Shown here: in pieces, positions 4,612 through 51,569 of the stretch
Numbering within the stretch: position 1 is the first letter of the stretch
Layout: each line of letters opens with the position of its first letter
NCBI GenBank assembly: GCA_964638945.1
Contig: CAZXCC010000001.1
Location: forward strand, 47,945-111,944
Length of the DNA: 64,000 nucleotides
DNA from: an uncultured Veillonellaceae bacterium
Lineage (GTDB): Bacteria > Bacillota > Negativicutes > UBA1444
Direction: 5' to 3'
Position numbers and translations under genes: made by a program
Notes under the pieces: model-generated
What the model was told of the DNA's origin: nothing
What the model saw: the letters and a program-made list of their open reading frames with translations, nothing else
Databases searched by the model: none

Positions 4612-4707
4612 ATAAATCTTGCTGAAACAAAATTTTGTAAAACGGCTACCGGAGATGGAGGCGATCTCCAATCTGGATTTTTTGAAAACAGGGGGGAAGT
4701 TGATACA

Positions 4708-5949: not shown

Positions 5950-5976
5950 TTGGTCTATAAAACGGAGGTGTGCACG

Positions 5977-6450
5977 TTGAATGTTGAAATAACTTGTAGG
6001 ATTAATGGCAAAGAAATTAACATGACGGTTCGGCCTGAAATGCTGTTGGTGGATTTCCTGCGTGATGAACTTGGTTTGACAGGAACGAAGAGAGGCTGCG
6101 GGATCGGTGAATGTGGCGCTTGCACGGTCATAATGGATGGACGCACAGTGGCATCTTGTATTGTTCCTGCCGCTTCGATCGACGGTTCGGATATTTTAAC
6201 GGTGGAAGGGCTGTCTGACGGAGAAAAACTCCATGTCCTTCAGCAGGCTTTCATCGACCATGGCGCAGTACAGTGCGGTTTTTGCACACCTGGGATGCTC
6301 TTGTCGGCAAAGGCTTTATTGGACAAAAATCCAAAACCGACACGGGAAGAGATCCGAGTGGCCATCTCTGGCAATGCATGCCGCTGTACAGGCTATACCA
6401 AAATTGTTGATGCGGTAGAATCAGTGGCAAAACTGGGAGGTGACGTTTGA
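5977..6450 (+). CDS. ndhS: nicotinate dehydrogenase (xanthine dehydrogenase family) 2Fe-2S small subunit
   Basis: two 2Fe-2S motifs CGIGECGAC and CGFCTPG; TTG start 8 nt after GGAGGTG; the ATG at 5839 would include the sigma-54 promoter and is judged less likely. Confidence 0.75.
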   Translation: MNVEITCRINGKEINMTVRPEMLLVDFLRDELGLTGTKRGCGIGECGACTVIMDGRTVASCIVPAASIDGSDILTVEGLSDGEKLHVLQQAFIDHGAVQCGFCTPGMLLSAKALLDKNPKPTREEIRVAISGNACRCTGYTKIVDAVESVAKLGGDV

Positions 6451-7721: not shown

Positions 7722-8774
7722 ATGAAGAAACGTGGTACAGGAATCGGTTGCATGTGGTATGGCATCGGCAATACGGGGCTTCCCAATCCGGCAGCGGCGT
7801 TTGTCGAATGGCTGGATGACGGGACGGCCAATTTGCTCGTCGGATGCGCGGATATAGGACAGGGATCGGATACCGCACTTGCCCAGATTGTGGCGGAAGA
7901 GCTCGGCATCAGTGCTGAAAACGTCATGGTCACCTCGGCTGACACGATGGTCACCCCTGAAGGCGGCGCTACAAGCGCCAGCCGACAGACTTACATTTCC
8001 GGCAACGCAGCACGCCTGGCGGCCAAGGAAGCCAAGCAGGTGGCGATTGCGGAAGCGAAAGAGATGTTGAAAACAACCGGCAATGTTGATTTTTCCCGTG
8101 GGTTCGTCTTGGTAGACGGAAAACCGGGAGAGCTTTCTGTGAAAGAAGTATTGGGCAGCTGTCGCATGAAGGGAAAACTCACGCTGGGACACGGGTGGTT
8201 CAATCCGGCGACAACAGGACTGGATACTGCCACGGGTGTAGGTTCGCCTTACGGAACATACGCTTTTGCCACGCAGGTGGCTGAAGTGGAAGTGGATACG
8301 GAAACCGGAAAAGTCGAAGTTCTTCGCCTCGTAGCTTCCCATGACGTTGGAAAGGCCATCAATCCCCAACTGGTCCAGGCGCAGATCGAGGGTGGCAGTG
8401 TCATGGGGGTCGGCTATGCCTTACTTGAGGAGATTAACGTTTCTGGCGGCCGCATTACAAATCCCAACTTTGATGCGTATCTTTTGCCCACTGCACTGGA
8501 TACGCCTGAGATTTATTCGTTTATCGTCGAAGATCACGAACCCACCGGCCCTTTCGGGGCGAAAGGCGTCGGGGAACCTGCTCTGATTCCAACTGCGGCG
8601 GCGATTGCCAATGCCGTGTACGACGCAATCGGTGTCAGAATCTATTCCCTGCCGATTTCTCCGGAACGGGTGCTCCAGGCGCTGGCAGAGAAAAAGAATG
8701 AGCAAAAGCCTGGCAACTGCAGTGGACCGGTATATGCGATTTGTTCAATCGGTGTGGAAGAAAGCAAGCCCTAA
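7722..8774 (+). CDS. ndhM: nicotinate dehydrogenase molybdopterin subunit, C-terminal half (NdhM-like)
   Basis: xanthine dehydrogenase family Mo-binding C-terminal region; clean TAA-ATG junction with GGGGGT RBS, mirroring the split 50+37 kDa L/M subunits of the E. barkeri enzyme. Confidence 0.75.
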   Translation: MKKRGTGIGCMWYGIGNTGLPNPAAAFVEWLDDGTANLLVGCADIGQGSDTALAQIVAEELGISAENVMVTSADTMVTPEGGATSASRQTYISGNAARLAAKEAKQVAIAEAKEMLKTTGNVDFSRGFVLVDGKPGELSVKEVLGSCRMKGKLTLGHGWFNPATTGLDTATGVGSPYGTYAFATQVAEVEVDTETGKVEVLRLVASHDVGKAINPQLVQAQIEGGSVMGVGYALLEEINVSGGRITNPNFDAYLLPTALDTPEIYSFIVEDHEPTGPFGAKGVGEPALIPTAAAIANAVYDAIGVRIYSLPISPERVLQALAEKKNEQKPGNCSGPVYAICSIGVEESKP

Positions 8775-8822
8775 TATCCGGGAGGCAGATTCCCGGCAAT
8801 CATGATAAGGAGAGTGACACAA

Positions 8823-9995
8823 ATGGCAAACCTAGTAATTACCAACATCGGCACAATTGTTTCAGGGGACATCGATTCTCCGATTCTCCAGGGTAACACC
8901 ATCGTTATCAAAGACGGAAAAATTGATGCCGTGGGAAATGCGGAACTGGTAGACGCTCTCAAAAAAGAATCGGTCGAATTCAAAACCATTGACGCAGGTG
9001 GTATGACAGTGACCCCGGGTCTGATTGATTCGCATGTTCATCCGGTCATCGGCGACTATACACCGAGGCAAAAGATGTCGGATTTTATCGACAGTTCCAT
9101 TCATGGAGGCGTGACTTCGATGATCTCCGCAGGGGAATGTCATACGCCGGGCCGTCCGACGGATCCGGCCGGTGTAAAAGCTCTGGCCATTCTGGCGAAA
9201 AAATCATTCGCAAATCTTAAGCCGGGCGGTGTGAAAGTTCATGCCGGCTCCGTGATTCTTGAAAAAGGGCTGACGGAAGCTGATTTTGCTGAGATGGCGG
9301 CAGCGGGTGTCAATATCGTCGGCGAGGTGGGCCTGGGTTCGGTAAAGAAGCCTGAAGATGCTGCGCCCATGGTGGCCTGGGCCAAGAAGCACAATATGAA
9401 AGTCATGATGCACACGGGCGGCACTTCGATTCCAGGTAGCTCCACAGTATCTGCAGATGACGTGATCAAAACGGACCCGGACGTAGTATCTCACATCAAT
9501 GGCGGCCCTACGGCGGTTTCATTGAAAGAGGTCGACAGGTTGCTTGACGAGACGCAGTTTGCATTGGAGATCGTACAGTGCGGCAACCCGAAAGTGGCTG
9601 ACTATGTGGCGCGCAAAGCGGCTGCCAAGAACCAGATGCATCGGATTATTTTCGGCAACGATGCTCCTTCCGGCACCGGCGTGATTCCTCTGGGGATTCT
9701 TCGAAACATCTGCCAGATTGCCAGCATATCTGAGATTCCTGCAGAAAAAGCCATTGCGATGGCTTCGGGAAACACTGCCCGTACTTATGGATTGAACACC
9801 GGAGTGATTGCGCCGGGAAAAGACGCGGATCTTGTGATTTTGGACACACCGATGGGCTCGGTCGGCAAGAATGCGCTGGAAGCGATTGAAGCCGGAGATT
9901 TGCCTGGAGTCGCGTTGGTACTTGTTGATGGAGTGATCAAGGTAAACAAGAGCCGCAATACTCCGCCGACAGTGGGAAAAGTAACGGGTGCCTAA
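8823..9995 (+). CDS. ena: enamidase-like amidohydrolase (1,4,5,6-tetrahydro-6-oxonicotinate amidohydrolase)
   Basis: amidohydrolase metal motif GLIDSHVHP; 390 aa, matching the about 386-aa E. barkeri enamidase; cluster context. Confidence 0.7.
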   Translation: MANLVITNIGTIVSGDIDSPILQGNTIVIKDGKIDAVGNAELVDALKKESVEFKTIDAGGMTVTPGLIDSHVHPVIGDYTPRQKMSDFIDSSIHGGVTSMISAGECHTPGRPTDPAGVKALAILAKKSFANLKPGGVKVHAGSVILEKGLTEADFAEMAAAGVNIVGEVGLGSVKKPEDAAPMVAWAKKHNMKVMMHTGGTSIPGSSTVSADDVIKTDPDVVSHINGGPTAVSLKEVDRLLDETQFALEIVQCGNPKVADYVARKAAAKNQMHRIIFGNDAPSGTGVIPLGILRNICQIASISEIPAEKAIAMASGNTARTYGLNTGVIAPGKDADLVILDTPMGSVGKNALEAIEAGDLPGVALVLVDGVIKVNKSRNTPPTVGKVTGA

Positions 9996-10016
9996 GGAAA
10001 CGGGAGGTTTGGAACA

Positions 10017-11525
10017 ATGATCATTGTCAAGAAGGAACTCTGCAAGGCCTGCGGCTTATGTGTCAAGAACTGTCCGGCAAGCGCGGTCAAAGTCATAGAC
10101 AAATTGGCCGTGGTGCAGGAGAATTGCGTCAGTTGCGGCGTCTGCGTCCGTGTCTGCCCTTTTCAGGCAATCATGCGCGAAGTGGAAATTGCTGCAGGCG
10201 CAGTTTCTTGCCGTTCATGCCCGGTCCAATGCGAAATCAAGGCAGGGTTTGAAGGTGCATGCAAACGCTATAGCAACATCAACGGAAAATTGGTGCGAAA
10301 CCGTGAACTGGTACTGGAAAATACCCGGTCTCAGGTGCCGGACCGGACAATCCCGGATAAGCCTCTGATTACTGCCGTAGGTGCGGGTACAGAGTATCCC
10401 TGCTGCCGTCCGGCCCCTCATATTGTCGGTGAGACGATCGACGGCATCGATGTGGTGACCGTAGTGACGGAAGCTCCGCTCAGTTACAGCGGTATCAAGG
10501 TAAAGATTGACGCCAACCGCCACATCGGCGAAGAAGGCGCGAAGATATTCAGGGACGGTGCGCTCGTCGGCATGGTGGACACCGAAGAGTATGGATCAAA
10601 GATGATTTACATCGGCGGAGCGAATATTCTGAGCGGGAAGAATGGATTTGCCGCGGCCCGGACCATTGTCGAACTGGCGAATGAAGAACGAGTGACACTG
10701 CAGGTCGAAAAAGGAAGCAAGCTGGAACTGCAGGTCGGTCACGCACCAATCATTGACGGTGTTGCCGAAAAGAAAATGCGTGTTGGTTGCGGCAGTGCAA
10801 CCGTCGGTATGTTTGCACGTATCATGAGTCAGGCAGTGGATGAAGCCATCGTGCTGGACCATCATGTTATTGGACTTCTGTCGGAACACCGGGCGGGTGA
10901 AGAGGTTGGAATGCGCTGGAGCGGCGTTGTTCCAAACGGCAGAAAAAGTACAAGGGGTAGATATTTCGGGGAGCATGGGCATGGTTGGGGCGGCACTCAT
11001 ATCGAAAAGCCTCTGGATGCAGTCAAGTCTGTAGATATGAGCATCGCCAGACAGGGCATGAAAATATTGGTTACCGAAACTACCGGGCAAAAAGGCGCAT
11101 TGCTGGAAGTGCAAGCGGATGGCAGTGTGCGCGAGATTCCGATGACTCCGGATGCTCAGGCCGCTGTCAACATGATTGTCGACAATTGTGAGGAAGCCAG
11201 GGTATCTGCCGTTTATGTCGGCGGAACCGGCGGCAGTGCGAGAGCAGGCGTGACGACCTATCCCATCAAGCTTTCACGCGCCGTGCATGCAGGGGAAGCA
11301 AAGTTGACAATCGGCGGGGCCATGGCCTACATCCTTCCGGGAGGCGGCATAAATTTTCTGGTGGATGTGGAAAAAGTGGAACCGAAGGCTTTTACCTGGG
11401 TTCCGACTCCTGCAACAGTAGCGCCGGTTGAATATACGATGACCCGCCGCAAATATGAAGAAATCGGTGGACATGTCGAGTCCATCAAACCCCTCTCCAC
11501 GCTCAAAAAGGCGAACAAAAAATGA
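10017..11525 (+). CDS. hnr: 6-hydroxynicotinate reductase-like protein with N-terminal 2x[4Fe-4S] ferredoxin domain
   Basis: CKACGLCVKNCP and CVSCGVCVRVCP motifs plus additional Cys clusters; position and size consistent with Hnr of the E. barkeri pathway. Confidence 0.6.
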   Translation: MIIVKKELCKACGLCVKNCPASAVKVIDKLAVVQENCVSCGVCVRVCPFQAIMREVEIAAGAVSCRSCPVQCEIKAGFEGACKRYSNINGKLVRNRELVLENTRSQVPDRTIPDKPLITAVGAGTEYPCCRPAPHIVGETIDGIDVVTVVTEAPLSYSGIKVKIDANRHIGEEGAKIFRDGALVGMVDTEEYGSKMIYIGGANILSGKNGFAAARTIVELANEERVTLQVEKGSKLELQVGHAPIIDGVAEKKMRVGCGSATVGMFARIMSQAVDEAIVLDHHVIGLLSEHRAGEEVGMRWSGVVPNGRKSTRGRYFGEHGHGWGGTHIEKPLDAVKSVDMSIARQGMKILVTETTGQKGALLEVQADGSVREIPMTPDAQAAVNMIVDNCEEARVSAVYVGGTGGSARAGVTTYPIKLSRAVHAGEAKLTIGGAMAYILPGGGINFLVDVEKVEPKAFTWVPTPATVAPVEYTMTRRKYEEIGGHVESIKPLSTLKKANKK

Positions 11526-38608: not shown

Positions 38609-38747
38609 CCGCTCCACAATAGTTCACAAAGTTGTAACAAATATGCCATAGTTTTGTAACGACTGCCGTCTATACTCATAAGTGAGTTCCCGTCATTCTG
38701 CAATAGGCAGGAAAATGGAGTTGCATGAGGTGAATGGAGGTAGATTT

Positions 38748-39257
38748 GTGAACAACAGAGCACCAAAAAAAATCGTCTGTTCTTTGTTAATCGGATTGCT
38801 GCAGTTCGGTGGAGGGGCTTATGTCGTTGAAGCGGCAGCAAGGGAAGAGCAACGGACTCAGCTTGCGGCGCCTCAGGATCCGTCAAAATTCGATAGGGCT
38901 CAGCAAGAGCGCTACTGGCAGGAACGTCGACATCTGCAGGAACAGGAACTGAATGAACGTCGCCGGGAAGAAGCTCTACGGCATGAACAGGAACTAAGGC
39001 GGCGCGAACGGGAAGACGAACGGGAATGGAAGAATCGGCAATGGCTGGAGCACCAGCGGATTCAACAACGGAACGAAGAACGCGCACGCAGGCAATGGTG
39101 GGAAAATCAGCGCCACGAAGAGGCAATGCGGCGGTTGGAATATGAAAGTGATCGTGAATGGCATCGGCGGCAATGGCAGGAGAAACAGCGCCATGAAGAA
39201 GCAATGCGTGAAATAGAAATAGGCGTATTAGCCTTGGCGGTACTTCTCGGCAAATGA
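38748..39257 (+). CDS. secreted/anchored low-complexity protein: signal peptide, long Arg/Glu/Gln/Trp-rich repetitive helical region (QRHEEAMR repeats), C-terminal hydrophobic anchor
   Basis: GTG start 7 nt after GGAGG; internal near-identical 27-nt DNA repeats at about 39108 and 39184; the antisense ORF 38512..39204 is judged spurious. Confidence 0.5.
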   Translation: MNNRAPKKIVCSLLIGLLQFGGGAYVVEAAAREEQRTQLAAPQDPSKFDRAQQERYWQERRHLQEQELNERRREEALRHEQELRRREREDEREWKNRQWLEHQRIQQRNEERARRQWWENQRHEEAMRRLEYESDREWHRRQWQEKQRHEEAMREIEIGVLALAVLLGK

Positions 39258-39385
39258 ATAAAGTTGCGTGGGCAGCCCCGGATTGTACCGTGGCTGTTCT
39301 TTTTCACGAGCAAAGGAATAACTGCGGTTTTACAGAATAATCTTCCGTACAAGAGGTCATTTGTTCACAGGGAGATGGAACAGAG

Positions 39386-42253
39386 ATGGGCAAAGTAAAC
39401 CGACGGAATTTTTTGAAAGGATTGGGATGCGCGGCTGCAGTGGTGACCGCATGCAGTGTACCCGGAAAATATCTGCGCCCTGTGACTGGCGCAGCAGCGA
39501 ATACTTTCCACCGCATAAGCCGAGAAAGCGAATATGGACCGTGGGCGGCAGAGTTGTATCTAAATACGGCGAAATGGAATTCGGGGCAAACTGTTGAAGG
39601 GGAAACCGTTCTATATTTGCCTTTTGGGACTCGAGCGGCGATGGAAGCCGACGGCTTCATCCCGGAACGATGGATATGTCTTGTCACGGCTGAGCGGCTG
39701 TTCGATGCAAATGGGGATTTGCGTTTGATTAATGGGGTCGGATGCGCCACCTGTCTGACACCGGGAGGATTGGCCATCGAAGGCGGGGTGCAGGGTGCTT
39801 TGGGTTCTATGGGAGAGAAATCTTTTCGAGCCTATCTGGACGTGTATGTGGAAGCCAAACGTGCTGAGGCGCACGGGGATACCAATGTTGTTGAAACAGT
39901 AAGATTTCCATTCAAATATAAACTGGCTGAAGACATTCCGGCAGGAACAGTAAGGTTGCGTGTTGATTTTGGGATTGGCGAAAACAGGGCCGGACATGTC
40001 GGCCATAGGCATAGCCTCAACGGAGAAGGGTTTGCGCGACGGCAACGCGATGGCTGGTCCGGTTTCTTCTCGGCTCCGATACCAGTGAATATGGAGCCCG
40101 GGAAGAGGCGCATCCCTTGGGTGATTATGTCCCGATGGGGATCAAACGGGCAAAGGGGGATAGTTGCCGAGGAAGATAAAGGCAGATTTGCCTTGTCTCC
40201 CAGACATATTGCTCCTGCTGATCCAATTTTTCCTATGGAGGATTCGGGTGGGAGAAAGCAGGAATATGAGGTCATTCCTGACATACTGGCTTGGAAATCG
40301 GATAAACACCGTCAAATCGAATGGGCAAGCGAGGCGGGCTGGTTTTCTGCGGAGCTGCAGATGCCATCCGGAAAAAATCTGCAATTTGACAATCTGTCCC
40401 TCATTCCCGGTCTGGATGGAACGCTGGCTGTTTCCGATATGAAACGTTGCCGCTGGCGTCCGGAAGAATATGGTGAACATGTGCTGATACTAAGGGGTTA
40501 TTGTGTCGATACATGGGGAAACCATTATGATGGCGGGGGAACATATCGATTTTGGATAGCGGAACGCCTGACGATTGCTACAGCCACTTTTCTGGGTCTT
40601 GCTTTACAGGCCGGCCGGAACTATGGGGCTCCGATCGCCATGAATCCGGCTTTTGCTGGTGAAGTTTCCATTGAACTTCAATTGTATTCTGCATCAGAAA
40701 AACAACGGCGGAAGAATTTCCAATGTTCGGGGAAGAGCAATGAGAGCGGCGTTTTTGGTCCGGCGGAAGGATTGAAGCAATTTACTCTTGATGAACCAGG
40801 AGAGTATATTGCCAGGATCCGGGGAAAAGCCACGGATAAAAAAGGGCGTTTGTGGATGGCATCGTTGACTCATGCCGGGGTCGTGGTTCCTCCGGATACA
40901 ACAATTGAAGCGCGGGGCAAAAAGATTAAAATTGGACGAGCCTATGCACTGCGCGGCGAAACACATTCCGAGGGGTATGTTGAAAAAGGATTGCCGCCGT
41001 TGCCGGCAAATGGGAAGTACTCAAGGGCTGACCTGGCGAGATTCCGGTTTCTTGACCATATCAACTATCCCTGGTTTCCGCTTGACGTGCTTCTTGTCGC
41101 GAGTGAAGGGCAAGGCGCCAACAAGATTGAACCGGTATTAACGTACGTGCGAAAAGGAGAAACGGAAGATTTAAAGCGCGGTACATTGGGAATCGGGTAC
41201 TCCGAACTGCAGTTCCCGCAATGCGAGGGCGGCTGGGACCCCTTCACCCACCCTGAAAAAATAAGGCAAAAAGGCGGATATTGGTACGCAGCGGCACCGA
41301 GGCCAGGATTTATGTCCAGATTTATGGTGGCGACCAATGGCGTATTCGCGCCATACTGGCCTACAAGCAACACCAATTTCGGCGGCCAGGCTGGCGCCTC
41401 GGCAAATGGGGATATGCCTGGTGATATCTATCGTCTGCTCGGCGGTGTCGTTGTGCCGGAAAAAAACGGACCCCCCTCCTATGCCGGCTATTTGGCCAAC
41501 GCAGTCATTTTGCCTGCCGGATCAGGAAACAACCGCATCATATCTCCTGGACTGGAAGATTTGCCAGGACCTGACGGGAAACAGGGACGTTTTTTTCTTG
41601 TTGCGGTTCGTCCGGGAACGGTTTATGGCGCAGACGCCAGATTCACGCCTTTTTTGCAGATTGACCCGGTCGTGCAGGCGCAGGTTCGCTATGAACTGAT
41701 TTCGCCAGCCGGAAAGATTTATAGAGCAGAAGGCATTGGTAACATGGAGGGTTATTTTTTTGGCAGAGAAACCTGGCTGCTCAATGAACCCGGTGTCTGG
41801 ACGTACAGGATACAGGCGGAATTTGACGGAAAGCCCGGACGTATGCCCGGATTGCCGTCAACAGGCGGATGGCTTTTTGTTACTGAAAAGCGGAACGCAA
41901 TGAATGCGGCTAAACTTGATTTGGGAGTGCCTGACAAGTTGCCGTTTGACCCGGCAAAAGGGTTCAAGGTGCAGGGGATTACGACAGGACAGAGCGTGTT
42001 TCTCGCTGCAGTAGTGCCGGGATGTGTAGTGGGTCAATGGGAGATTCCTGTGCGGACAGGCCGGTTTGAATGGCAGTTTGATCCGGGATTCATTCATGAA
42101 AGGGTTCCCGCCTATGATATCAAGCATAGCGCTTCGGGGCGCGCGCAACTCGGGCGAATCGTGCATTTGACATATTTTACACGAACCCTTACCGGTTCAT
42201 GGGAATGGGCGCGAATCATCGTGCGCGGTCCGGTGGCTTTCAACGGAACCTGA
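39386..42253 (+). CDS. large (955 aa) Tat-exported protein of unknown function
   Basis: twin-arginine signal NRRNFLKGLGCAAAVVTA; no catalytic motif recognised. Confidence 0.65.
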   Translation: MGKVNRRNFLKGLGCAAAVVTACSVPGKYLRPVTGAAANTFHRISRESEYGPWAAELYLNTAKWNSGQTVEGETVLYLPFGTRAAMEADGFIPERWICLVTAERLFDANGDLRLINGVGCATCLTPGGLAIEGGVQGALGSMGEKSFRAYLDVYVEAKRAEAHGDTNVVETVRFPFKYKLAEDIPAGTVRLRVDFGIGENRAGHVGHRHSLNGEGFARRQRDGWSGFFSAPIPVNMEPGKRRIPWVIMSRWGSNGQRGIVAEEDKGRFALSPRHIAPADPIFPMEDSGGRKQEYEVIPDILAWKSDKHRQIEWASEAGWFSAELQMPSGKNLQFDNLSLIPGLDGTLAVSDMKRCRWRPEEYGEHVLILRGYCVDTWGNHYDGGGTYRFWIAERLTIATATFLGLALQAGRNYGAPIAMNPAFAGEVSIELQLYSASEKQRRKNFQCSGKSNESGVFGPAEGLKQFTLDEPGEYIARIRGKATDKKGRLWMASLTHAGVVVPPDTTIEARGKKIKIGRAYALRGETHSEGYVEKGLPPLPANGKYSRADLARFRFLDHINYPWFPLDVLLVASEGQGANKIEPVLTYVRKGETEDLKRGTLGIGYSELQFPQCEGGWDPFTHPEKIRQKGGYWYAAAPRPGFMSRFMVATNGVFAPYWPTSNTNFGGQAGASANGDMPGDIYRLLGGVVVPEKNGPPSYAGYLANAVILPAGSGNNRIISPGLEDLPGPDGKQGRFFLVAVRPGTVYGADARFTPFLQIDPVVQAQVRYELISPAGKIYRAEGIGNMEGYFFGRETWLLNEPGVWTYRIQAEFDGKPGRMPGLPSTGGWLFVTEKRNAMNAAKLDLGVPDKLPFDPAKGFKVQGITTGQSVFLAAVVPGCVVGQWEIPVRTGRFEWQFDPGFIHERVPAYDIKHSASGRAQLGRIVHLTYFTRTLTGSWEWARIIVRGPVAFNGT

Positions 42254-42389
42254 GATTGAATCGGAATTGAATATTGAATGTAGTGCAGGAGAAGCAGGCC
42301 TTGATGTGAAATAATTAATAAGAATCGATTTGTACATGGACATGGTTGTCATTTTCGAACGCAAATGCTGGAAAACCGGAGGCGAAACT

Positions 42390-45248
42390 GTGTTTCTTCG
42401 TCTGCGAAAGACTGCAAAAAAAAGTGGCTGGGGCAGCCTGCTTTTGCTGGCTTCGATTTTTTGCGGTCTCATTTTGACAGGGCATCTATCTTTACTGCTT
42501 ACCCCTGTGGCTGCCGGAGAAACTCAGCAACGGATAATCCGCCTTGCTGACGATAAGGGGTATCCACCCTATATTTTCACTAATTCCGCCGGGCAGCCGG
42601 ATGGATTTGAAATGGATTTGTTCCGGCTGATCGAGCAGGATACCGGCCTGAAGTTCGAATGGACGCTGACCGAATTTGACAATGCGGTGAATATGCTGCG
42701 CAACGGCCAGGCAGAAATCGTTCCAGGAATGAATGTGACAGAAGACCGAAAAATGGAATTTGCTTTTTCACGCCCTTATTTGCAGGATAAGGGTGTGCTT
42801 TTTGTACCTGCGGACAGTTATCACATAAGCAGGCTGGACGATCTGGTGGGACGGCGGGTTGGAGTGCAGCAGGGGGAGGTGTCGGAGCAGTATCTGCGGC
42901 AAAACAAGAAACAACTTTCTCTGTATCTTTTTCCCAGTCAACGGGAACTTTTGCAGGCTGTGGTTGAGCGAAAAATTGATGCAGCAATCTGCAATTACTA
43001 TTCGGGACATTATTTCCTACATCAGCTGCAATTGGAGGAAAAAGTAAAGACGATTGGCGAGCCGATTTTTACCCATCCTTTCGCAGTGGCAGCTAGCAAA
43101 GATAATAGAGATGTGCTGGCAATTATAGATGCTTCGATTGAAAAATTGCAGTCAGGCGGCAGACTGGATGCCCTACAGGAAAAATGGTTTGGCGGGCAAA
43201 ATCTGATTTTGGGAATGAGCCGGCAAAAGCTTGGCTTATATGCGGCGGTTGCAACAGCTGGAATCATTGCCGTTGCTTGCGTAACCCTGTTGTTTATCCT
43301 CTTCCTGCGACGGAAAATTGTACAGGCTACCTCCGAGATTGCAGGACAGAGGGATGAACTTCACAAGGCGTATCAGGAAATGGCGGCGCAAAATGAAGAA
43401 CTGCTGGCGCAGGATGAACTGCTGAGTTTTCAGAACCGCACCCTGCAACTGCAGGAGCAAAGATTGACAGAGCGGAATCGAATTTTGGAAGCGTTGCAGG
43501 ATACGACTATCGAGATGCTGCAAATAGACGATGTGGATGAATTGTTTGCGCGCATCCTCAAGAGGGCGGCTCAGCTGGCTGGAACCGAAAGCGCAAAAAT
43601 CGACACATGGGATGCCGCAGGGTCGATGCTTCAGGCACGGGTTGCAATGGGATACGCCGGAAATATTGGACATATTCCGGGGAAAGGCCTTACGGGAGAG
43701 GTTATCCAACACGGAAAAACATTGCTGATAGAAGATTACCAGTCATGGGAAAAGCGTCTCCACGGGCCGGAAACGGACGTGATCCTTTCGGCGCTGGGCG
43801 TGCCGCTCTTGATTCGTGGCAATGTCCGGGGACTTCTCATAATGGACCACACAGAGCAAGGAAAAAGTTTTTCTCCGGAGCAGATTGCGGCAGTGGAGCA
43901 GTTTGCACATATTGCCGCAATTGTCCTCGCAAACGCCGATGACCGAGAAGCTTTGAAAACTATGGCGTATCACGATGCGTTGACGACTCTGCCAAACAGG
44001 CCGGCTCTCATGGAACGTCTCGTGCAGGAACTGGACAGGGCTATACGGGGGGAAACCTCCGGGGCAATCCTGTTGCTGGATCTCGATAATTTCAAGATGG
44101 TGAATGATTCGCTGGGGCATGCCTGCGGCGACTTGCTTTTGCAGGAACTGGGCAGGCGTTTGCATGAAACCGCTGCGGAGGCCGATATGGTTGCCAGAAG
44201 CGGTGGTGACGAGTTTGTGATTTTGTATGGCAATGTGGCTGATGACGGAGTGATTGAGGAATTTGCCGGAAGGATTATGCGATCTGTTTCCCAGCCTTAC
44301 GAGGTATGCGGCCAGCGTATGTACTGTACCATGAGCATGGGAATTGTACGGTATCCGGCTGATGGGACCGTTGCGGAAGAATTGTTCCGGGATGCGGATA
44401 CGGTTCTGCACGAAGTAAAAAGCGCCGGAAAAAATTCCTGGCGCTTCTTTGACTCGGCCATGAGGGACACGGTGTATCGCCGGATGCAGCTTGAGCACAG
44501 CCTGCACCAGGCAATGGGAAATAATGAACTGTTCGTTGTCTATCAGCCGGTTGTGGAGTTGCAGACACATCGTATCGTTGGATTTGAAACGCTGTTGCGT
44601 TGGAATAATCCGCAATACGGAAACGTCTCCCCCGTTTCATTCATCCCGATTGCTGAAGAAACCGGCTGGATTGTTTCCATCGGTCAGTGGGTCATTCGCC
44701 AGGCATGTCATTTTATGCAGAGACTGCGCCAGGATGGAAATGAAGATTTATTCGTGGCAGTCAATCTTTCGCCAAGGCAGTTGCGTCAGAGTGATTTTGT
44801 TGCGATGGTCCAGTCCATATTGCAGGAAACAGCGGTACCTCCTGAATTGCTCGAATTGGAAATCACGGAAACTCTGTTTATGGAATCAGTGGAACCGAAT
44901 CTGCAAAAAATCCGTGAACTGCGCAGTATTGGGGTCAGATTGGCTCTGGACGATTTCGGAACGGGATATTCTTCGTTGACCTATCTGAAGAACTTGCCGA
45001 TCAATACATTGAAAATTGATAAAACATTTGTGGATGATATCGTCGGGAGTTCCGTCAATGCAGCGATTCTTGGCTCGATTATTCAAATGGCTCATGGACT
45101 GGAGCTGACAGTAGTTGCCGAAGGCGTTGAAACGGAAGGGCAACGGAACGAGTTGATCCGACAGGGTTGCGACTTGATGCAGGGATATCTGTTCAGCAAA
45201 CCGGTGTTGGAGAATGAACTTTGCCGGATGTTGACAAAGAAAGCATAG
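42390..45248 (+). CDS. c-di-GMP turnover signalling protein: signal/TM - periplasmic SBP type 3 (PBPb) domain - TM - coiled coil - GAF - GGDEF - EAL
   Basis: GGDEF motif RSGGDEFVIL, EAL-domain motifs ETLLRWN and DDFGTGYSSL; GTG start 7 nt after GGAGG (the ORF-track TTG at 42330 is the alternative). Confidence 0.85.
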   Translation: MFLRLRKTAKKSGWGSLLLLASIFCGLILTGHLSLLLTPVAAGETQQRIIRLADDKGYPPYIFTNSAGQPDGFEMDLFRLIEQDTGLKFEWTLTEFDNAVNMLRNGQAEIVPGMNVTEDRKMEFAFSRPYLQDKGVLFVPADSYHISRLDDLVGRRVGVQQGEVSEQYLRQNKKQLSLYLFPSQRELLQAVVERKIDAAICNYYSGHYFLHQLQLEEKVKTIGEPIFTHPFAVAASKDNRDVLAIIDASIEKLQSGGRLDALQEKWFGGQNLILGMSRQKLGLYAAVATAGIIAVACVTLLFILFLRRKIVQATSEIAGQRDELHKAYQEMAAQNEELLAQDELLSFQNRTLQLQEQRLTERNRILEALQDTTIEMLQIDDVDELFARILKRAAQLAGTESAKIDTWDAAGSMLQARVAMGYAGNIGHIPGKGLTGEVIQHGKTLLIEDYQSWEKRLHGPETDVILSALGVPLLIRGNVRGLLIMDHTEQGKSFSPEQIAAVEQFAHIAAIVLANADDREALKTMAYHDALTTLPNRPALMERLVQELDRAIRGETSGAILLLDLDNFKMVNDSLGHACGDLLLQELGRRLHETAAEADMVARSGGDEFVILYGNVADDGVIEEFAGRIMRSVSQPYEVCGQRMYCTMSMGIVRYPADGTVAEELFRDADTVLHEVKSAGKNSWRFFDSAMRDTVYRRMQLEHSLHQAMGNNELFVVYQPVVELQTHRIVGFETLLRWNNPQYGNVSPVSFIPIAEETGWIVSIGQWVIRQACHFMQRLRQDGNEDLFVAVNLSPRQLRQSDFVAMVQSILQETAVPPELLELEITETLFMESVEPNLQKIRELRSIGVRLALDDFGTGYSSLTYLKNLPINTLKIDKTFVDDIVGSSVNAAILGSIIQMAHGLELTVVAEGVETEGQRNELIRQGCDLMQGYLFSKPVLENELCRMLTKKA

Positions 45249-45299: not shown

Positions 45300-46532
45300 T
45301 TACTCTTCTTCATCCAGGATTTCCTGAAGCAGGGGAAAGGGAGAGAGCGCCCTGCGCAGGATGCCCATAAGGGCAGCAATGGCAACGCCATAATTCACGA
45401 TGGGAACACCGGCCTGCTGTACCTCTACGATCCGGGCAAGCATTTCCCGGCGATTTGTCATGCATGCGCCGCAGTGAAGCACCAGTTTGTATTCGCTCAG
45501 ATTTTTCGGGAAGGTCAGGCCGCTGGAGTGGTCGACAGTCAGTTCTCCTCCGACATGCTGGCGCAACCAGCGAGGGATTTTAACAGTGCCGATGTCATCT
45601 TCTACACGGTGATGCGTGCAGGACTCGCTGATCAGTACCTTGTCGCCGGGTTTCAGATGATCGATGGCACGTGCGCCACGCACCATGGTTTCCAGATCCC
45701 CCTTGTAGCGGGCAAACAGAATGGAAAAAGAAGTGAGCAGCACATCAGGCGGGGTATCCGCATCGGCCTTGAGAAAAACCTGTGAATCTGTGATTACGAT
45801 TCTGGGTTTGCGGTTCAGGCTGGCGATACATTCCTTCAATTCCCGCTCTTTGACGGTATAGGCCATGGCGTCATGGTCGAGGATATCGCGGATCATCTGT
45901 ACCTGCGGCAGAATCAAACGCCCTGCGGGAGCTGCCAGATCGATGGGCACTACCAGGACAGCAACATCGCCCGGTTGCAGCAGGTCCCCCACGATGGTCT
46001 GATTGTCCCAACGAGCCGGCGCATGACGGACCATGGCGATTTTCAGATCACCAATGCCGCGTCGTTCGCTGGCGCTGACTGCGACTGCTGCAGCGGCTCC
46101 CAGTTCCGATTTGGCGTTTTCCAGAGCCTCCGCTGCAGGAGTTTCCAAGTCGGTTTTGTTAAATACAAGGAGAAAGGGAATGTTTTGCAGCCGGCACTTT
46201 TCCGCAAGTTCTTTCTCCGGCGCACCTATTCCGAGCGTGGCATCGGTCACCAGCAGCACCAGGTCGGATTTGCGCAGTACCTCCAGAGATTTTTCGATGC
46301 GCAGCTTCCCCAGCTCTCCGACATCGTCCAGACCTGCCGTGTCGATGACGACCACGGGTCCGAGGGGCAGGATTTCCATGGACTTATAGACTGGATCCGT
46401 GGTGGTGCCGGCAACCGAAGAGACGATAGCGAGCGATTGATTGGTCAGTGCGTTGATGAGACTGGACTTGCCGGCGTTTCGGCGTCCAAAGAGGGATATA
46501 TGCAGGCGGTTGCCGCGTGGCGTTTCATTCAT
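45300..46532 (-). CDS. hydF: [FeFe]-hydrogenase H-cluster maturation GTPase
   Basis: N-terminal GTPase G1 GRRNAGKSSLINAL, DTAG; C-terminal Fe-S motifs CTHH and HCGAC characteristic of HydF; 410 aa. Confidence 0.7.
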   Translation of the reverse strand: MNETPRGNRLHISLFGRRNAGKSSLINALTNQSLAIVSSVAGTTTDPVYKSMEILPLGPVVVIDTAGLDDVGELGKLRIEKSLEVLRKSDLVLLVTDATLGIGAPEKELAEKCRLQNIPFLLVFNKTDLETPAAEALENAKSELGAAAAVAVSASERRGIGDLKIAMVRHAPARWDNQTIVGDLLQPGDVAVLVVPIDLAAPAGRLILPQVQMIRDILDHDAMAYTVKERELKECIASLNRKPRIVITDSQVFLKADADTPPDVLLTSFSILFARYKGDLETMVRGARAIDHLKPGDKVLISESCTHHRVEDDIGTVKIPRWLRQHVGGELTVDHSSGLTFPKNLSEYKLVLHCGACMTNRREMLARIVEVQQAGVPIVNYGVAIAALMGILRRALSPFPLLQEILDEEE

Positions 46533-47967
46533 GTCGCGCCTCCTTTGTTTTGGCTGGAGCCGGTTTTTTTATCATGCCCGGACGGGTCAGCATTTCCGGC
46601 CTCAATAGAATTTCCACCTCTTCTTCTGTAAAGAGGTGGCTTGCAACCAAGATTTGCTTGACGGAGGTATCATCGTGCAGAGCCTGCTTGGCGACGACGG
46701 CAGCCCGGTCATAGCCGATTAGCGGTGCAAGAGCCGTTGCAAGAGCTACGCTATGCTCCAGATGAGACAGGCATTTCGCAGGACTGGCGTCGATCCCTGC
46801 AATACAGCGGTCTGCAAATAACTTCATCGCTTTTGTGAGTTCTTCCATCGCCGGCAGCAAGTTGGCGGCAATGAGCGGCAAAAATGCGTTGAGCTCCAGC
46901 TGACCTCCCTGCGCCGCCAGTGTGATAGCCAAGTCGCGTGCTATGGTCTGATATGCAACCTGGGCTAATAATTCGGGCATGACCGGGTTGACTTTGCCTG
47001 GCATGATGGAAGAGCCCGCCTGCAATTCCGGCAGATGGATTTCGGCGAAGCCTCCTTTTGGCCCGGAGGAAAGGAGCCGCAGATCATTGCTGATTTTGAT
47101 CAGAGTTGCGGCACAGGCCTTGAGCAGACCGGAAACCTCAACAAAAACATCGGCATTTTGCGTGGTGTCGATCATGTTTTCATCCCTGGCAAGGCCGATG
47201 CCGGTCAAGGCCCGTAAACGTTCGACAACACCGAAAACATATTTTCTTTCGGCATTCAGGCCGGTACCGACGGCAGTGCCGCCGAGGTTGACCTCGCGCA
47301 AGCGTTCTTCCACTTTATAAAGCCGCCATCGATCACGGGCAACTGCCTCGGCCCAGGCGGAAAATTCCTGTCCGAGGGTGATCGGTACGGCATCCTGCAT
47401 TTCCGTACGTCCCAATTTAAGGATACTTGCAAACTCCGCTTCCTTTTTCTGCAATGCTCCCTGCAGTTGCGCGCAGGCTTCCGAAAGGGGTTGGAGCAGC
47501 CGGATGGCCGCAACGCGCAAAGCTGTGGGATACACGTCATTGGTCGATTGCGACAAATTGACGTGGTCCAGGGGGTGAACCACACGATAGTCTCCTTTTT
47601 GGCCGCCAAGCAGTTCGATGGCCCGGTTGGCTACGACCTCATTGACGTTCATGTTGGTTGAAGTGCCGGCACCTCCCTGCAAGGCGTCTACCGGAAACTG
47701 ATCTGAAAACCTTCCTTCCGACACTTCGGCGGCAGCCTGGAATATCGCCGAACCCAATCGGGGCTCCAGAATGCCGAGAGACATGTTCATTTCCACCGCA
47801 GCCTGTTTGACTGTGGCAATGGCGCGAATGAGCTCCGGGTGAACCGCTTGTCCGGAAACTGAGAAATTTTCCAGTGCCCGCACGGTATGGATGCCATAAT
47901 AGGCTTCGGACGGTACTTGCTTTTCGCCGAGAAAATCGTGTTCTGTCCGGTACATGACGACCTCCAT
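46525..47967 (-). CDS. aspA: aspartate ammonia-lyase (fumarase/aspartase class II family)
   Basis: GSSIMPGKVNP signature; DQFPVDALQGGAGTSTNMNVNEV matches aspartase rather than FumC. Confidence 0.8.
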   Translation of the reverse strand: MEVVMYRTEHDFLGEKQVPSEAYYGIHTVRALENFSVSGQAVHPELIRAIATVKQAAVEMNMSLGILEPRLGSAIFQAAAEVSEGRFSDQFPVDALQGGAGTSTNMNVNEVVANRAIELLGGQKGDYRVVHPLDHVNLSQSTNDVYPTALRVAAIRLLQPLSEACAQLQGALQKKEAEFASILKLGRTEMQDAVPITLGQEFSAWAEAVARDRWRLYKVEERLREVNLGGTAVGTGLNAERKYVFGVVERLRALTGIGLARDENMIDTTQNADVFVEVSGLLKACAATLIKISNDLRLLSSGPKGGFAEIHLPELQAGSSIMPGKVNPVMPELLAQVAYQTIARDLAITLAAQGGQLELNAFLPLIAANLLPAMEELTKAMKLFADRCIAGIDASPAKCLSHLEHSVALATALAPLIGYDRAAVVAKQALHDDTSVKQILVASHLFTEEEVEILLRPEMLTRPGMIKKPAPAKTKEARHE

Positions 47968-47971
47968 ATTT

Positions 47972-48226
47972 TTATTTGCTGCTTAAGGCGGAACGCACCT
48001 GGACTCCGTTTATATTGCCAAGTTGCCCTGTCAGGGACCCAATCTCGTCGGTTGTCCCCTGCACAATCAGGGTAATGACCGATATGCCTGTTTCGTTATG
48101 TTGAATGCGGGGAATACCCATCCTCCCGGCAATGATTTGTCCATGGCGGCTGAGAATGGCATTGATCTCGGGAGCGCGAAGCGGGTCCTCAATCACAATG
48201 CCGATAAAACCAAGTCTTTGTTGCAT
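47972..48226 (-). CDS. small ACT-domain protein of the TM1266 type (putative iron-only hydrogenase system regulator)
   Basis: 84 aa, MQQRLGFIGIVIEDP...; AAGGGGGT RBS; family call from memory. Confidence 0.5.
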   Translation of the reverse strand: MQQRLGFIGIVIEDPLRAPEINAILSRHGQIIAGRMGIPRIQHNETGISVITLIVQGTTDEIGSLTGQLGNINGVQVRSALSSK

Positions 48227-48523: not shown

Positions 48524-50533
48524 GTGCCAAAGGGAATGAGTAAAGGGGAAATCGTTGTGAAAAGCATTCAGATGAAACTGACGGTTACTATTTTGATTAT
48601 TTTCCTCGGAGCCCTGAGTACCTTGGGTGGGCTGAACTACTGGAAGGCGCGTGAACTCGTCTACACAAGCTCCGTCAACGAAATCAAGATATTGGCCGCC
48701 AATTCGGCCAATGAGGTCAGTGACTGGCTTGAGGCGCACAAATACGAAGTGGCCGGCATGGCCCTGGCACCGACCCTGCAGTCTGGAATCCGGGAACAGA
48801 TTTTGCCTTTCCTGGTTGCTGCAATTAAAGCAAATGGAAGATATGTCTCTTTTGGGTACGTGAATACATCCGGCATCGGGTTTGATTCCAACGCCGTGGC
48901 TGTCAATCTCAGTGCTCGGGAATATATCCAAAAAGCCCTGCGCGGAGAACACTCCATGTCAGACCCTGTAGTTTCGCCTGCAACCGGAGCTCTGGTGGCT
49001 GTCTTTGCTTCTCCTGTCAAGGCTCCGGATGGCAAAGTGACTGGAGTATTTTTCGGGGCCATCGATCTTGGTGAAATATCCAAAAAGGTTGGCGAGGTAA
49101 GAATCGGCAAAACGGGATACGCTTATATGTTGAAAGGCGATGGGATGACGATCGTCAATCCGAATAAAGACCTGGTAATGAAGGACAATCCCTTGAAAAA
49201 TGAGAAACTGCCGCAATCGTTGCGACAAACGGCCGAACGCATGGTCAAGGGAGAAAAGGGCATCACTGTTTATGAGTACAACGGCATGGAAAAAATGGTG
49301 GGTTTTGCACCGGTAAAAAGTGCCGGATGGTCTCTGGCGGTAAGTGCGCCGCTTACTGAGATGACAGAAGGATTGAACGCATTGACGTGGATTTCTCTTG
49401 TCACCATCTTAGTTGTGCTGATTATTGCGGCCCTCATTATCGCCTGGTTTGCAAAGAGTATCGCCAAACCCATACGGATTCTCGAGAAGGCCGTGAACAC
49501 CGTCGCTGCGGGAGATCTGTCCGAAACCAGCATGGGGATCCGTTCCCAAGACGAAATCGGCCGTTTGGCCAGAAGCTTCAAACAGATGGTCGGAAACATG
49601 CGGGCGCTGGTCAAGCAAATTTCCAGCGATGCCGAACATTTGGCAGCTTCCAGCGAGGAGCTCACTGCCAGTGCGGAACAATCTTCCCAGGCGACAAACC
49701 AGGTCGCACTTTCCATCCAGGAAGTTGCAGGCGGTGCGAACGAACAGATGAATGCCGCAAACGAGGCTGCCGCCGTTGTTACAGAGATGTCGGCCGGTAT
49801 CCAACAGATTGCTGCGAATGCATCTTCGGTATCCGAACAGTCTGAAACGGCGGCGGATAAAGCAGTCAAGGGAGGAGCGGCTGTGGATAAAGCCGTCAGC
49901 CAGATGAGCCAGATAGAACAGACTGTCAATACTTCCGCCCAGGTCGTGGCCAAGCTCGGTGAAAGGTCAAAAGAAATCGGACAGATTGTCGATGCCATCT
50001 CAGGGATTGCCGGCCAGACGAACCTGTTGGCTCTCAATGCTGCCATTGAGGCGGCACGGGCGGGAGATGCGGGGCGTGGCTTTGCCGTGGTGGCCGAAGA
50101 AGTGAGGAAGCTGGCCGAACAATCGGAAGAGGCGGCCAAGAAAATCGCCGGACTGATCGGAGAAATCCAGGTGGATACGGACAAAGCGGTTCAGGCAATG
50201 CAACAGGGAACACAGGAAGTAAAAACCGGTGCGGAAGTGGTGAATGCCGCCGGAATATCCTTCCGTGAGATAGCGGATCTGGTGACGGAGGTTTCGGACC
50301 AGGTCGGACAAATCTCCAAAGCGATCCATGAGATGGCTTCGGGGAGTCAGAAAATTGTGGAGTCCGTCAATAAAATCGACGGGCTGAGTAAAAAATCGGC
50401 AGGGGAGGCGCAGAGCGTCTCTGCAGCTACGGAAGAGCAACTGGCGTCAATGGAGGAGATTTCCACTTCAAGCCGGGCGCTTGCTACTTTGGCTCAGGAA
50501 CTTCAGACGGCTGTAGGAAAATTTAAGTTCTAA
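48524..50533 (+). CDS. methyl-accepting chemotaxis protein with double Cache (dCache_1) periplasmic sensor, HAMP and MCP signalling domain; start possibly GTG 48557
   Basis: two TM segments flank an about 250-aa extracellular domain; HAMP; MCP core [35 protein letters not shown]. Confidence 0.85.
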
Positions 50534-50771
50534 CGATTGAAAATGAAGCGAATCTTGGGAGTTGCGATTCCTACCCCGGTTCCCTCCATGGGCGCCGGGG
50601 CTTTTACTTTTCTATCAGAAAATATAACTATCTGGGACATGAGAAACCCACGGCTTCCCCGGCGCAGAGGTTCGGCGCAAGCCATGTTTTCTCAGGCTCA
50701 AGATGAAAACAGCAGGATAAATTCCTCTGGAAGACGAAAACGGGGATGAGGGATTGGCAAGGAGTGAAGTG

Positions 50772-51569
50772 AATATGAATACTCGCTTGTATTATTACAC
50801 CGGTACGGGAAATTCTCTTTGGATAGCACGGCAACTGGCAGGGCGGCTGCAAGGGGAAACTGCGCTGATTTCTTTGGGAACCGGAATCCCAATGCCTGAC
50901 GAGTCCTGCGAGAGAATAGGCATCGTTTTTCCTGTTCATATTTGGGGAGTGCCGCGACGCGTATTAGAATTTGTTGAAAAAATGACGGTACAGCCTGGGT
51001 GTTATTTTTTTGCGATTGCGGTCAATGCGGGGCAAGTGGCGGCGACACTCGTACAGTTGAAAAAGAGTTTGGCAGCCAGGGGTATCCTGCTCGGTTCCGG
51101 GTTCGACTTGAAAATGCCGTCAAACTATATTCCATGGGGTGGTGCACAGCCGGAGAAAAAACAGGAAGAGCTGTTTTCGCAGGCAGAAAAGAAATTGGAC
51201 AAAATTGCCGAAATTGTTCAGCTCCGGGAAAATGAACCGGTGGAAAAAGGTCCGTGGTGGCAGAATTTGCTGTTTTCTTTTGCCAATAAAATGACCTTTG
51301 CGCATGTCCCCAAACTGGACAAGGATTTTTGGGTAGGAGAGCTTTGTAATGGTTGTGGTCTTTGCACCCGGGTGTGTCCGGCAGGAAACATCCGCATGGC
51401 GGCAGGAAAACCTGTCTGGCAGCACCATTGCGAACAATGTCTTGCCTGTCTGCAATGGTGTCCGCAGGAAGCGATCCAATACGCAAAAAAAACGGCAGGG
51501 AAGAAAAGGTACCATCATCCGAAGATTTCAGCGGCTGACATGGTGGGAGCACCTGTTGGCCGGAAATGA
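50772..51569 (+). CDS. EFR1-family ferredoxin (flavodoxin-like domain fused to 2x[4Fe-4S] domain)
   Basis: YYYTGTGNS flavodoxin-like N-terminus; CNGCGLCTRVCP and CEQCLACLQWCP motifs. Confidence 0.6.
   Translation, partial: NMNTRLYYYTGTGNSLWIARQLAGRLQGETALISLGTGIPMPDESCERIGIVFPVHIWGVPRRVLEFVEKMTVQPGCYFFAIAVNAGQVAATLVQLKKSLAARGILLGSGFDLKMPSNYIPWGGAQPEKKQEELFSQAEKKLDKIAEIVQLRENEPVEKGPWWQNLLFSFANKMTFAHVPKLDKDFWVGELCNGCGLCTRVCPAGNIRMAAGKPVWQHHCEQCLACLQWCPQEAIQYAKKTAGKKRYHHPKISAADMVGAPVGRK

Follow-up and report, generated by a model that had tools for sequence, protein, structure and literature searches.

Three consecutive minus-strand genes in DNA from an uncultured Veillonellaceae bacterium of the Negativicutes (contig CAZXCC010000001.1) raise the question of why an aspartate ammonia-lyase (aspartase) gene should stand directly beside hydF, a gene for [FeFe]-hydrogenase maturation, behind a small gene of the TM1266 family, and of how the three are controlled. 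The stretch of contig analyzed, here called the window, is 64,000 nucleotides (nt) (64 kb) long. The analysis indicates that the trio is very probably a genuine operon, a suboperon of the [FeFe]-hydrogenase maturation system, and that it is preceded by a candidate regulatory RNA leader. The aspA-hydF linkage and the ammonia-donor role of the aspartase are already published and are not new.

The TM1266-like gene, aspA, and hydF

An open reading frame (ORF) map of the window placed three co-directional genes on the minus strand, with plus-strand genes on either side. In the 5′-to-3′ direction they are as follows.

48226 to 47972, minus strand: TM1266-like ACT/NikR-C-like gene, 84 amino acids (aa), first gene of the operon (TIGR03959 and PF21699)
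47967 to 46525, likely start at 47955, minus strand: aspartate ammonia-lyase gene of the AspA/AspB type (NF008909, Lyase_1, and FumaraseC_C)
46532 to 45300, minus strand: hydF, H-cluster maturation GTPase/scaffold, 410 aa (TIGR03918)

The original prediction had read a hydF-aspartase-TM1266-like trio at this place, and profile searches backed each identity. HydF scored 573.7 bits against TIGR03918 (cutoff, 325.55), covering profile positions 1 to 392 of 392, and Pfam assigned MMR_HSR1 to residues 12 to 126, HydF_dimer to residues 180 to 278, and HydF_tetramer to residues 282 to 398. The translation contains the GTPase motifs G1 (GRRNAGKS), G3 (DTAG), and G4 (NKTD). The CTHH and HCGAC Fe-S motifs that had been predicted are both present in a CxHH...HCxxC pattern, the ligand residues of which (C305, H307, H308, H353, C354, and C357) were invariant in 12 HydF sequences. 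An Era-like GTPase identity was ruled out by the TIGR03918 score and by the presence of both HydF-specific C-terminal domains.

The TM1266-like protein scored 93.8 bits against TIGR03959 (cutoff, 60.8), matched PF21699, and matched PDB entry 2NZC, which has the TM1266 fold, with an E value of 1e−7. It is therefore a small ACT-domain protein of the hydrogenase-maturation type, as had been proposed, and its gene adjoins hyd maturation genes both here and in relatives. Thermotoga maritima TM1266 (2NZC; TIGR03959, "iron-only hydrogenase system putative regulator") shares the family, the fold, and the hyd-maturation neighborhood, although some genes of the family adjoin TonB-dependent receptor genes instead of hyd genes. 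The residues R4, G6, R35, G37, P39, G63, T66, G67, G70, and S79 were invariant in the family, and no conserved His/Cys metal site was found in the family alignment. Unlike the C-terminal metal-binding/tetramerization domain of NikR, the protein comes without a ribbon-helix-helix domain and without conserved His/Cys nickel ligands. NikR-like metal sensing was considered and rejected as unlikely because no His or Cys is conserved. The searchable literature contained nothing relevant on a function for the TM1266 family or on a hyd-associated riboswitch. We conclude that the TM1266-like protein consists of one small ACT/NikR-C-like domain standing alone and that its gene keeps company with hyd maturation genes.

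The junctions between the genes are tight. As had been claimed, the aspA stop and the hydF start overlap by 8 nt (ATGAATGA), read directly from the sequence, and an AAGGAGG lies 7 nt upstream. The 4-nt gap that had been reported between the TM1266-like gene and aspA holds only if translation of the aspartase begins at ATG 47967, which gives 480 aa. A second ATG at 47955 (MYRTE...) gives 476 aa and is the likelier start, because GGAGG lies 6 nt upstream of it and because homologs, together with an identical database protein, are 476 aa long; the gap is therefore 16 nt, not 4. The mechanical ORF list stretches the TM1266-like ORF to TTG 48301 (109 aa), through the terminator hairpin of the leader. 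Its homologs are 84 aa long, and ATG 48226 is thus the real start.

Linkage of aspA to hydF and the role of the aspartase

The middle gene product scored 666.5 bits against the NF008909 aspartate ammonia-lyase subfamily (cutoff, 510) and fell under the stricter equivalog cutoff of TIGR00839 (570.6 versus 681.2). The closest solved structure was AspB of Bacillus sp. YM55-1 (1J3U; E = 3.8e−143), and Escherichia coli AspA (1JSW) matched with an E value of 3.4e−122; homology to both is full length. The SS loop GSSIMPGKVNP, identical in the three enzymes, occurs once in the 64 kb. Active-site residues were compared in an alignment of 53 aspA-like proteins from the survey described below with AspB, E. 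coli AspA, and FumC. Residues T101, S140, T141, N142, T187, S318, S319, M321, K324, and N326 (AspB numbering) of the window enzyme were the same as in AspB and E. coli AspA, and the substrate triad was the S-T-N of aspartase, not the S-S-N of fumarase C. All of these positions except S319, which was Thr in some more distant homologs, were conserved across the 53 proteins. Position 188 (window residue 185, in GRTEMQDAVP) is Glu, whereas AspB has His and E. coli AspA has Gln; among the hydF-adjacent survey homologs it was Glu in 23 and Gln in 22. A catalytically altered paralog was rejected, and there is no case for a new activity, because only position 188 differs and E. coli AspA also does without His there. 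We conclude that, by its residues, the middle gene product is an ordinary aspartase, predicted to convert L-aspartate to fumarate and ammonium.

A synteny survey was conducted on 80 hydF loci from species-representative genomes, fetched with a HydF alignment, in which five gene types were mapped; the HydE and HydG reference proteins were validated from one locus. An aspA-like gene directly abutted hydF on the same strand in 45 of the 80 loci (42 upstream and 3 downstream) and lay within 10 kb in 53, so that the adjacency is conserved in relatives. Of the 49 loci flanked by 5 kb or more on each side, 31 had aspA adjacent to hydF, and 11 had the pair with neither hydE nor hydG within 10 kb (including Sporomusa, Selenomonadales, Massilibacillus, Paenibacillus, and Clostridium). 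Thus, the separation from hydE and hydG seen in the window is not unusual. Four loci, from Desulforadius, Pelotomaculum, Desulfoscipio, and one other (L006, L015, L022, and L074), carried the order act-aspA-hydF-hydE-hydG, where act is the TM1266-like gene, and the window therefore resembles that cluster minus its last two genes. Four independent metagenome contigs carried the trio with identical proteins, and relatives annotated as Negativicutes (approximately 84% aspartase and 90% HydF identity) kept a stand-alone act-aspA-hydF arrangement with different flanking genes.

Three side observations came from these and additional loci. A 2.9-kb contig with aspA-hydF-hydE was filed under a Mycobacterium leprae metagenome-assembled genome (MAG) (L029), almost certainly a binning or labeling error. 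In three Paenibacillus loci (L034, L037, and L038; approximately 4000 to 11260) the order was hydA-hydG-hydF′-aspA-hydF, with the aspartase gene between two HydF paralogs, and the upstream hydF′ copy was only 43 to 45% identical to the window HydF. At another locus (L213, 5351 to 6609) HydF was encoded as two ORFs, a 199-aa GTPase and a 185-aa dimer/tetramer part, which represents either a split gene or an assembly frameshift.

The linkage has a published precedent. In a genome-neighborhood analysis, Pagnier et al. (2024, J Biol Chem 300:107760, PMC11736057) found that hydF clusters with genes for ammonia-lyases, chiefly aspA: for 79% of bona fide hydF genes, one or more of aspA, ilvA, and sdaA were present no more than 20 ORFs away on either side, the usual lyase gene within ±10 ORFs was aspA, and aspA was nearer to hydF than to hydE. 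By 15N electron nuclear double resonance, the same study showed that nitrogen from 15N-aspartate reached the dithiomethylamine ligand when E. coli AspA was included in a defined, lysate-free maturation in vitro, and it proposed that ammonium from the lyase feeds the H and T proteins of glycine cleavage. Being directly adjacent to an authentic hydF, the window aspA falls within the ±10 ORFs that mark a hyd-associated lyase in that work. The window pair shares with the published system, which is widespread in anaerobic Firmicutes and beyond, the placement of aspA next to hydF and the proposed role of ammonium; it differs in being headed by a TM1266-like gene and in standing apart from hydE, hydG, and hydA. 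Neither the TM1266-like gene nor a leader RNA is mentioned in that study.

Taken with the published pathway, the pair would work as follows. The 2Fe subcluster would be completed on HydF, a GTPase acting as scaffold, next to which the aspartase would split L-aspartate to fumarate and ammonium. By way of the glycine-cleavage H and T proteins, the ammonium would become the bridgehead nitrogen of the dithiomethylamine ligand. The original prediction had suggested that the aspartase is part of the maturation system, plausibly supplying ammonia or fumarate for the azadithiolate bridge. Conserved adjacency to hydF and the 15N transfer in vitro speak for the first two of these points, and fumarate supply found no support as an input to maturation. 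We conclude that an ammonia-donor role for hyd-linked aspartases is supported, a role that the window enzyme would be presumed to play in vivo.

Alternatively, the aspartase could serve energy or nitrogen metabolism: aspartate fermentation would yield fumarate as an electron acceptor, or an ATP-yielding route, with electrons leaving as H2, and the linkage to hydF would reflect co-regulation. A coupling of this kind was proposed by Aklujkar et al. (2012, PMC3543383), who gave a metabolic explanation for an aspA gene between hydG and hydF, and PMC11736057 itself invokes fumarate respiration to explain why aspA, not sdaA, stays as the neighbor. The fully canonical active site would suit such a role. 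The adjacency is specific to hydF, however, often with overlapping stop and start codons, and it persists where hydF stands apart from hydA, hydE, and hydG; the published proximity of aspA to hydF rather than hydE and the arrival of aspartate nitrogen in the ligand also argue for an ammonia donor. We therefore regard a purely metabolic role as improbable. Several points nevertheless weigh against ammonia donation to HydF in this organism. An enzyme that is catalytically ordinary could equally serve central metabolism; the published biochemistry was done in vitro with the housekeeping AspA of E. coli, not with a hyd-linked enzyme; a dedicated lyase is not strictly required, since free ammonium also works in vitro; and with hydE, hydG, and hydA absent from the window, a complete maturation system in the genome is an assumption.

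The original prediction had seen no hydE or hydG within 15 kb on either side of the trio, and motif and Pfam scans extended this absence to the whole 64 kb and to hydA. No CxxxCxxC radical-SAM motif or HydA H-cluster motif was found in any ORF of at least 150 aa across the window, and Radical_SAM, BATS, and Fe_hyd_lg_C were absent from Pfam scans of 20 large ORFs between 30.5 and 63.2 kb. These ORFs encode a sigma-54 activator, flavoproteins, an aldehyde dehydrogenase, a periplasmic binding protein, an SBP-GAF-GGDEF-EAL protein, two chemoreceptors, a ferredoxin-domain protein, glycosyltransferases, ABC and Tct transporters, and a 2-oxoacid:ferredoxin oxidoreductase. The genes hydE, hydG, and hydA would be encoded elsewhere in the genome. 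Approximately 6.6 kb (38682 to 45248, plus strand) separate hydF from two kinds of gene, Peripla_BP_6 and aldehyde dehydrogenase, that are its immediate neighbors in three related loci (L087, L088, and L090). This segment contains a 191-aa ORF and a 955-aa ORF (39386 to 42253), neither of which had a Pfam match, together with the SBP-GAF-GGDEF-EAL gene. On the other side, the chemoreceptor and ferredoxin-domain genes (48524 to 51569) are absent in L087 and L088. We conclude that the trio is conserved and that its flanks are variable.

The leader upstream of the TM1266-like gene

The start of the TM1266-like gene is separated by 297 nt from the divergent chemoreceptor gene. This interval, which lies beyond the region covered by the original prediction, contains leader elements on the minus strand.

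48397 to 48369, minus strand: sigma-70-like promoter, with −35 TTGATT (48397 to 48392), a 17-nt spacer, and −10 TATAAT (48374 to 48369)
48352 to 48316, minus strand: core leader hairpin with two internal loops (RNAalifold; covariance models R1, R2, and R3; covariation)
48350 to 48348 (CCU) with 48321 to 48319 (AGG), minus strand: core helix P1 (RNAalifold)
48345 to 48344 (GG) with 48324 to 48323 (CC), minus strand: core helix P1a (RNAalifold)
48339 to 48336 (GGGC) with 48332 to 48329 (GCCU), minus strand: core helix P2 (RNAalifold), family form GGGN/NCCU
Within the core, minus strand: junctions J1 GA, J2 AACA, J3 GACG, and J4 A (RNAalifold)
48318 to 48314 (GAUGA) with 48280 to 48276 (UCAUC), minus strand: connector stem P3, which encloses a variable hairpin and joins the core to the terminator
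48275 to 48251, minus strand: stem of an intrinsic terminator, 10 to 11 bp and G+C rich, with a U-rich tract at 48250 to 48240
48238 to 48232, minus strand: ribosome-binding site AAGGGGG, directly after the terminator

The promoter hexamers match the consensus at 10 of 12 positions, a consensus match alone being weak evidence, and both hexamers are conserved in four relatives (L005, L087, L088, and L090) in which the surroundings have diverged. We infer that the operon transcript starts near 48362, giving a leader of approximately 135 nt. There is no minus-strand gene upstream for the leader hairpin to terminate. Two blocks were invariant among four relatives while the surrounding sequence drifted, CCUG[A/C]GGAA[C/A]AGGG and CCUGACGCC[A/G]AGGG[A/G]UGA, and invariant blocks between diverging flanks were also seen across nine relatives. 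The terminator stem in relatives changes by compensatory substitutions, and the hairpin inside P3 kept its pairing through sequence changes in nine relatives. A metagenome scan with the 18-nt leader block CCTGACGCCNAGGGNTGA yielded four real leaders among the 120 matches listed, the rest being chance matches; all four (L110, L121, L157, and L195) lie upstream of a TM1266-like ORF. The RNAalifold consensus was derived from nine leader sequences.

The leader did not correspond to a described RNA family. Rfam 15 gave no match at the gathering threshold anywhere in the window and no minus-strand match at an E value of 10 or less, and in seven related loci only tRNAs reached the gathering threshold. 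Similarity to the PyrR binding site (RF00515; gathering score, 54 bits) reached 19.9 and 18.6 bits in two related leaders, and the window leader had no RF00515 match at an E value of 10 or less. Glycine, TPP, ZTP, guanidine-II, and glutamine riboswitches, as well as ANTAR, RAT, CsrA sites, and k-turns, were considered by eye, and none fits, in agreement with the Rfam searches.

Covariance models were built from the whole leader (R1) and from the core only (R2 and R3). R1 gave significant matches in Desulforadius tongensis (E = 2.7e−7), a Pelotomaculum MAG (E = 2.2e−5), "Candidatus Syntrophopropionicum," and a Clostridium MAG, each time directly upstream of a TM1266-like gene, and R2 and R3 found further matches in Halanaerobiaceae, Syntrophomonadaceae, Desulfoscipio, and others. 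Six leaders (L006, L015, L017, L022, L026, and L076) carry two tandem modules. Helix P1a occurs as GG/CC, GA/UC, GG/UU, GU/AU, UA/UA, CA/UG, CG/CG, CC/GG, CU/GG, UC/GA, and AU/AU, and P2 varies likewise; in an alignment of 26 modules, the P1a base pairs switch among GC, CG, and UA and among GC, AU, CG, and GU. In the MAFFT alignment of these modules, 87% of cells were paired versus 73.5% in column shuffles, and the covariation score was 0.403 versus 0.19 (0 of 500 shuffles as high in either case), statistics that are partly circular because the descriptor and the 26 modules were chosen after the sequences had been seen. Sliding the partner columns by 1 to 3 positions lowered pairing from 87% to between 36 and 65%. 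An intrinsic terminator followed the motif by 14 to 82 nt in 20 of 20 instances examined.

The motif tracks the TM1266-like gene. A loose structural descriptor gave 779 matches in 2.9 Mb and is thus usable as an enrichment test, not as a detector. In the 80 genome loci, among hyd clusters whose upstream region was complete, it matched 12 of the 17 clusters that start with a TM1266-like gene, with 3 more found by covariance model; it matched 1 of the 3 in which that gene is internal and 4 of the 70 without one, the last figure being at chance level. Matches upstream of act numbered 28 versus 2.5 expected, an excess that is also partly circular because the descriptor was written after the data had been seen. 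As an independent test, five TM1266-like loci (L211 to L215) were fetched afterwards and searched with R2, which matched within the last 150 nt before the TM1266-like gene in four of them; the match was the best in the locus in L213, L214, and L215 and the second best in L211. The motif was followed by a terminator in L211, which has act-hydG, and in L215, which has hydA...act-EamA-TonB receptor (3865 to 7294). No terminator intervened in the other two: in L213 (act-hydF-hydG) the 3′ AAGG of the motif (4959 to 4990) is the Shine-Dalgarno sequence, and in L214, where act precedes a TonB-dependent receptor gene (4957 to 7392), the motif (4957 to 4996) abuts the ATG. The arrangement in L213 and L214 suggests a translational version of the same switch, and the TonB loci L214 and L215 hint at a use of the protein/RNA module beyond hydrogenase maturation. 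No motif was found by R2 in L212, an orphan act beside a TPR gene, and the internal act genes of L057 and L079 also came without it. Second copies of the core lie between act and the next gene in L008 (6970 to 7006, before hydG) and L071 (7048 to 7083, before hydE); in L070, a locus without act, the motif precedes hydG, and in L056 it precedes aspA. We consider it reasonably likely, at somewhat better than even chance, that the leader is a conserved, structured cis-regulatory RNA that is genuine and, on the evidence of Rfam 15 and the searchable literature, undescribed.

Mode of action of the leader

The leader is probably an attenuator that acts as a riboswitch or is bound by the TM1266-like protein. 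The full-length minimum-energy structure of several family members was the consensus core plus P3 plus the terminator. When nascent prefixes reaching the 5′ arm of the terminator were folded, the arm paired with part of the core in the minimum-energy structure of all nine members, with the 3′ half of the core (CGCCAAGG...) in six and with J2 and the 5′ strand of P2 in three. In Pelotomaculum-type leaders, the core segment GCGAAAAGGG is complementary to the terminator 5′ arm CCCUUUUUUCGC, with shuffle fractions of 0.002 to 0.034. When the core 5′ half was tested by shuffling for complementarity to the terminator 5′ arm, L015, L017, L026, and L067 gave significant results and L048, L006, and L022 borderline ones.

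The core and the antiterminator would be mutually exclusive, and stabilizing the core should therefore cause termination. Accordingly modeled, the operon would be transcribed from the sigma-70-like promoter through the leader with its hairpin, connector stem, and terminator. If a small molecule stabilized the hairpin, or a protein did so (the TM1266-like protein itself being the most plausible one), the terminator would form and transcription would stop. If the hairpin were left unstabilized, part of it would pair with the 5′ arm of the terminator and polymerase would read through; P3 may extend into an antiterminator that uses the 3′ half of the core and the 5′ arm of the terminator. We infer from this that the leader would work as an OFF switch. 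Two points, besides the partial circularity noted above, weigh against the scheme. The transcription start is placed by a consensus match, and the antiterminator shuffle test was not significant in the window's own lineage (fractions of 0.11 to 0.96), so that there the antiterminator is a folding prediction, one in which other parts of the core appear to take part.

What would stabilize the core can be framed by analogy with the pyr and hut operons. In PyrR attenuation of pyr (RF00515), as with HutP of hut, the regulator gene comes first and stabilization of a hairpin lets a downstream terminator form; the present leader is not a member of RF00515, PyrR and HutP are not relatives of the TM1266-like protein, and binding here is putative. 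On that model the leader core would be an RNA operator of the TM1266-like protein, which would bind its own leader as well as internal attenuators and stabilize the hairpin, and through this operator the hyd maturation genes undergo effector-dependent negative autoregulation by termination. The association of the motif with the TM1266-like gene, upheld in four of the five independent loci, fits such an operator, as do the additional core copies that separate act from the following gene in L008 and L071, which recall the repeated attenuators between the first genes of the pyr operon. An oligomeric protein would be well matched to tandem modules, the PyrR binding site is the sole Rfam entry to which weak similarity was seen (in two leaders), and the protein has invariant R4 and R35 in a family lacking a conserved His/Cys metal site. 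Set against these points, we know of no stand-alone ACT or NikR-C-like domain that binds RNA, and the fold match to bS6 is generic for the ferredoxin-like fold. Moreover, the motif occurs in L070 with no TM1266-like gene in the locus, and some TM1266-like genes (L212 and the internal act of L057 and L079) lack it. We consider an operator of this kind a serious candidate, at a little short of an even chance.

A metabolite riboswitch of an undescribed class would account for some of the same observations. It would sense a molecule of H-cluster assembly or metal supply and would stop transcription or hide the ribosome-binding site, the TM1266-like gene being simply the first gene under its control. 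As seen here, such an RNA would have a conserved hairpin whose helices covary and whose internal-loop nucleotides are invariant; tandem modules and varied expression platforms (terminators in Firmicutes versus overlap with the Shine-Dalgarno sequence or start codon in L213 and L214) are in keeping with it, and the instances that do not directly precede a TM1266-like gene (L008, L071, L070, and L056) are readily accommodated. The motif follows the TM1266-like gene and not the pathway, however, as the cluster counts show, and it also precedes TM1266-like genes that lead TonB-dependent receptor genes rather than hyd genes. The core, at approximately 32 nt with helices of 2 to 4 bp, is small for a selective aptamer, and no ligand candidate emerged. 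We therefore hold a riboswitch to be possible but rather unlikely.

That the conserved blocks are instead a DNA operator for a transcription factor, with incidental RNA structure, is very improbable: the region does lie between divergent genes and conservation of the −35 and −10 elements is certainly at the DNA level, but the core is downstream of the −10 element on the transcribed strand, its helices keep pairing through double changes and lose it when the columns are slid, a terminator or ribosome-binding site always follows on the same strand, and reverse-strand matches score far lower.

Conceptually, the gene trio adds nothing beyond one more case, in an uncultured Negativicutes lineage, of the published aspartase-HydF linkage, and it shows that the linkage survives the separation of hydF from hydE and hydG. 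Most of the remaining interest lies in the leader, which is conserved, structured, and coupled to a terminator and which gives a testable role to the TM1266 family, for which a structure has been available since 2006 and no function. If the proposals made here are true, the leader represents an undescribed class of cis-regulatory RNA dedicated to TM1266-led operons, mostly those of hyd maturation and sometimes those of TonB-dependent receptor genes, and TM1266 proteins would be effector-sensing RNA-binding attenuation proteins, the first stand-alone ACT/NikR-C-like domains known to act in this way. As regards the control of H-cluster maturase synthesis, the leader may reveal the signal that tells the cell to make the hydrogenase cofactor.

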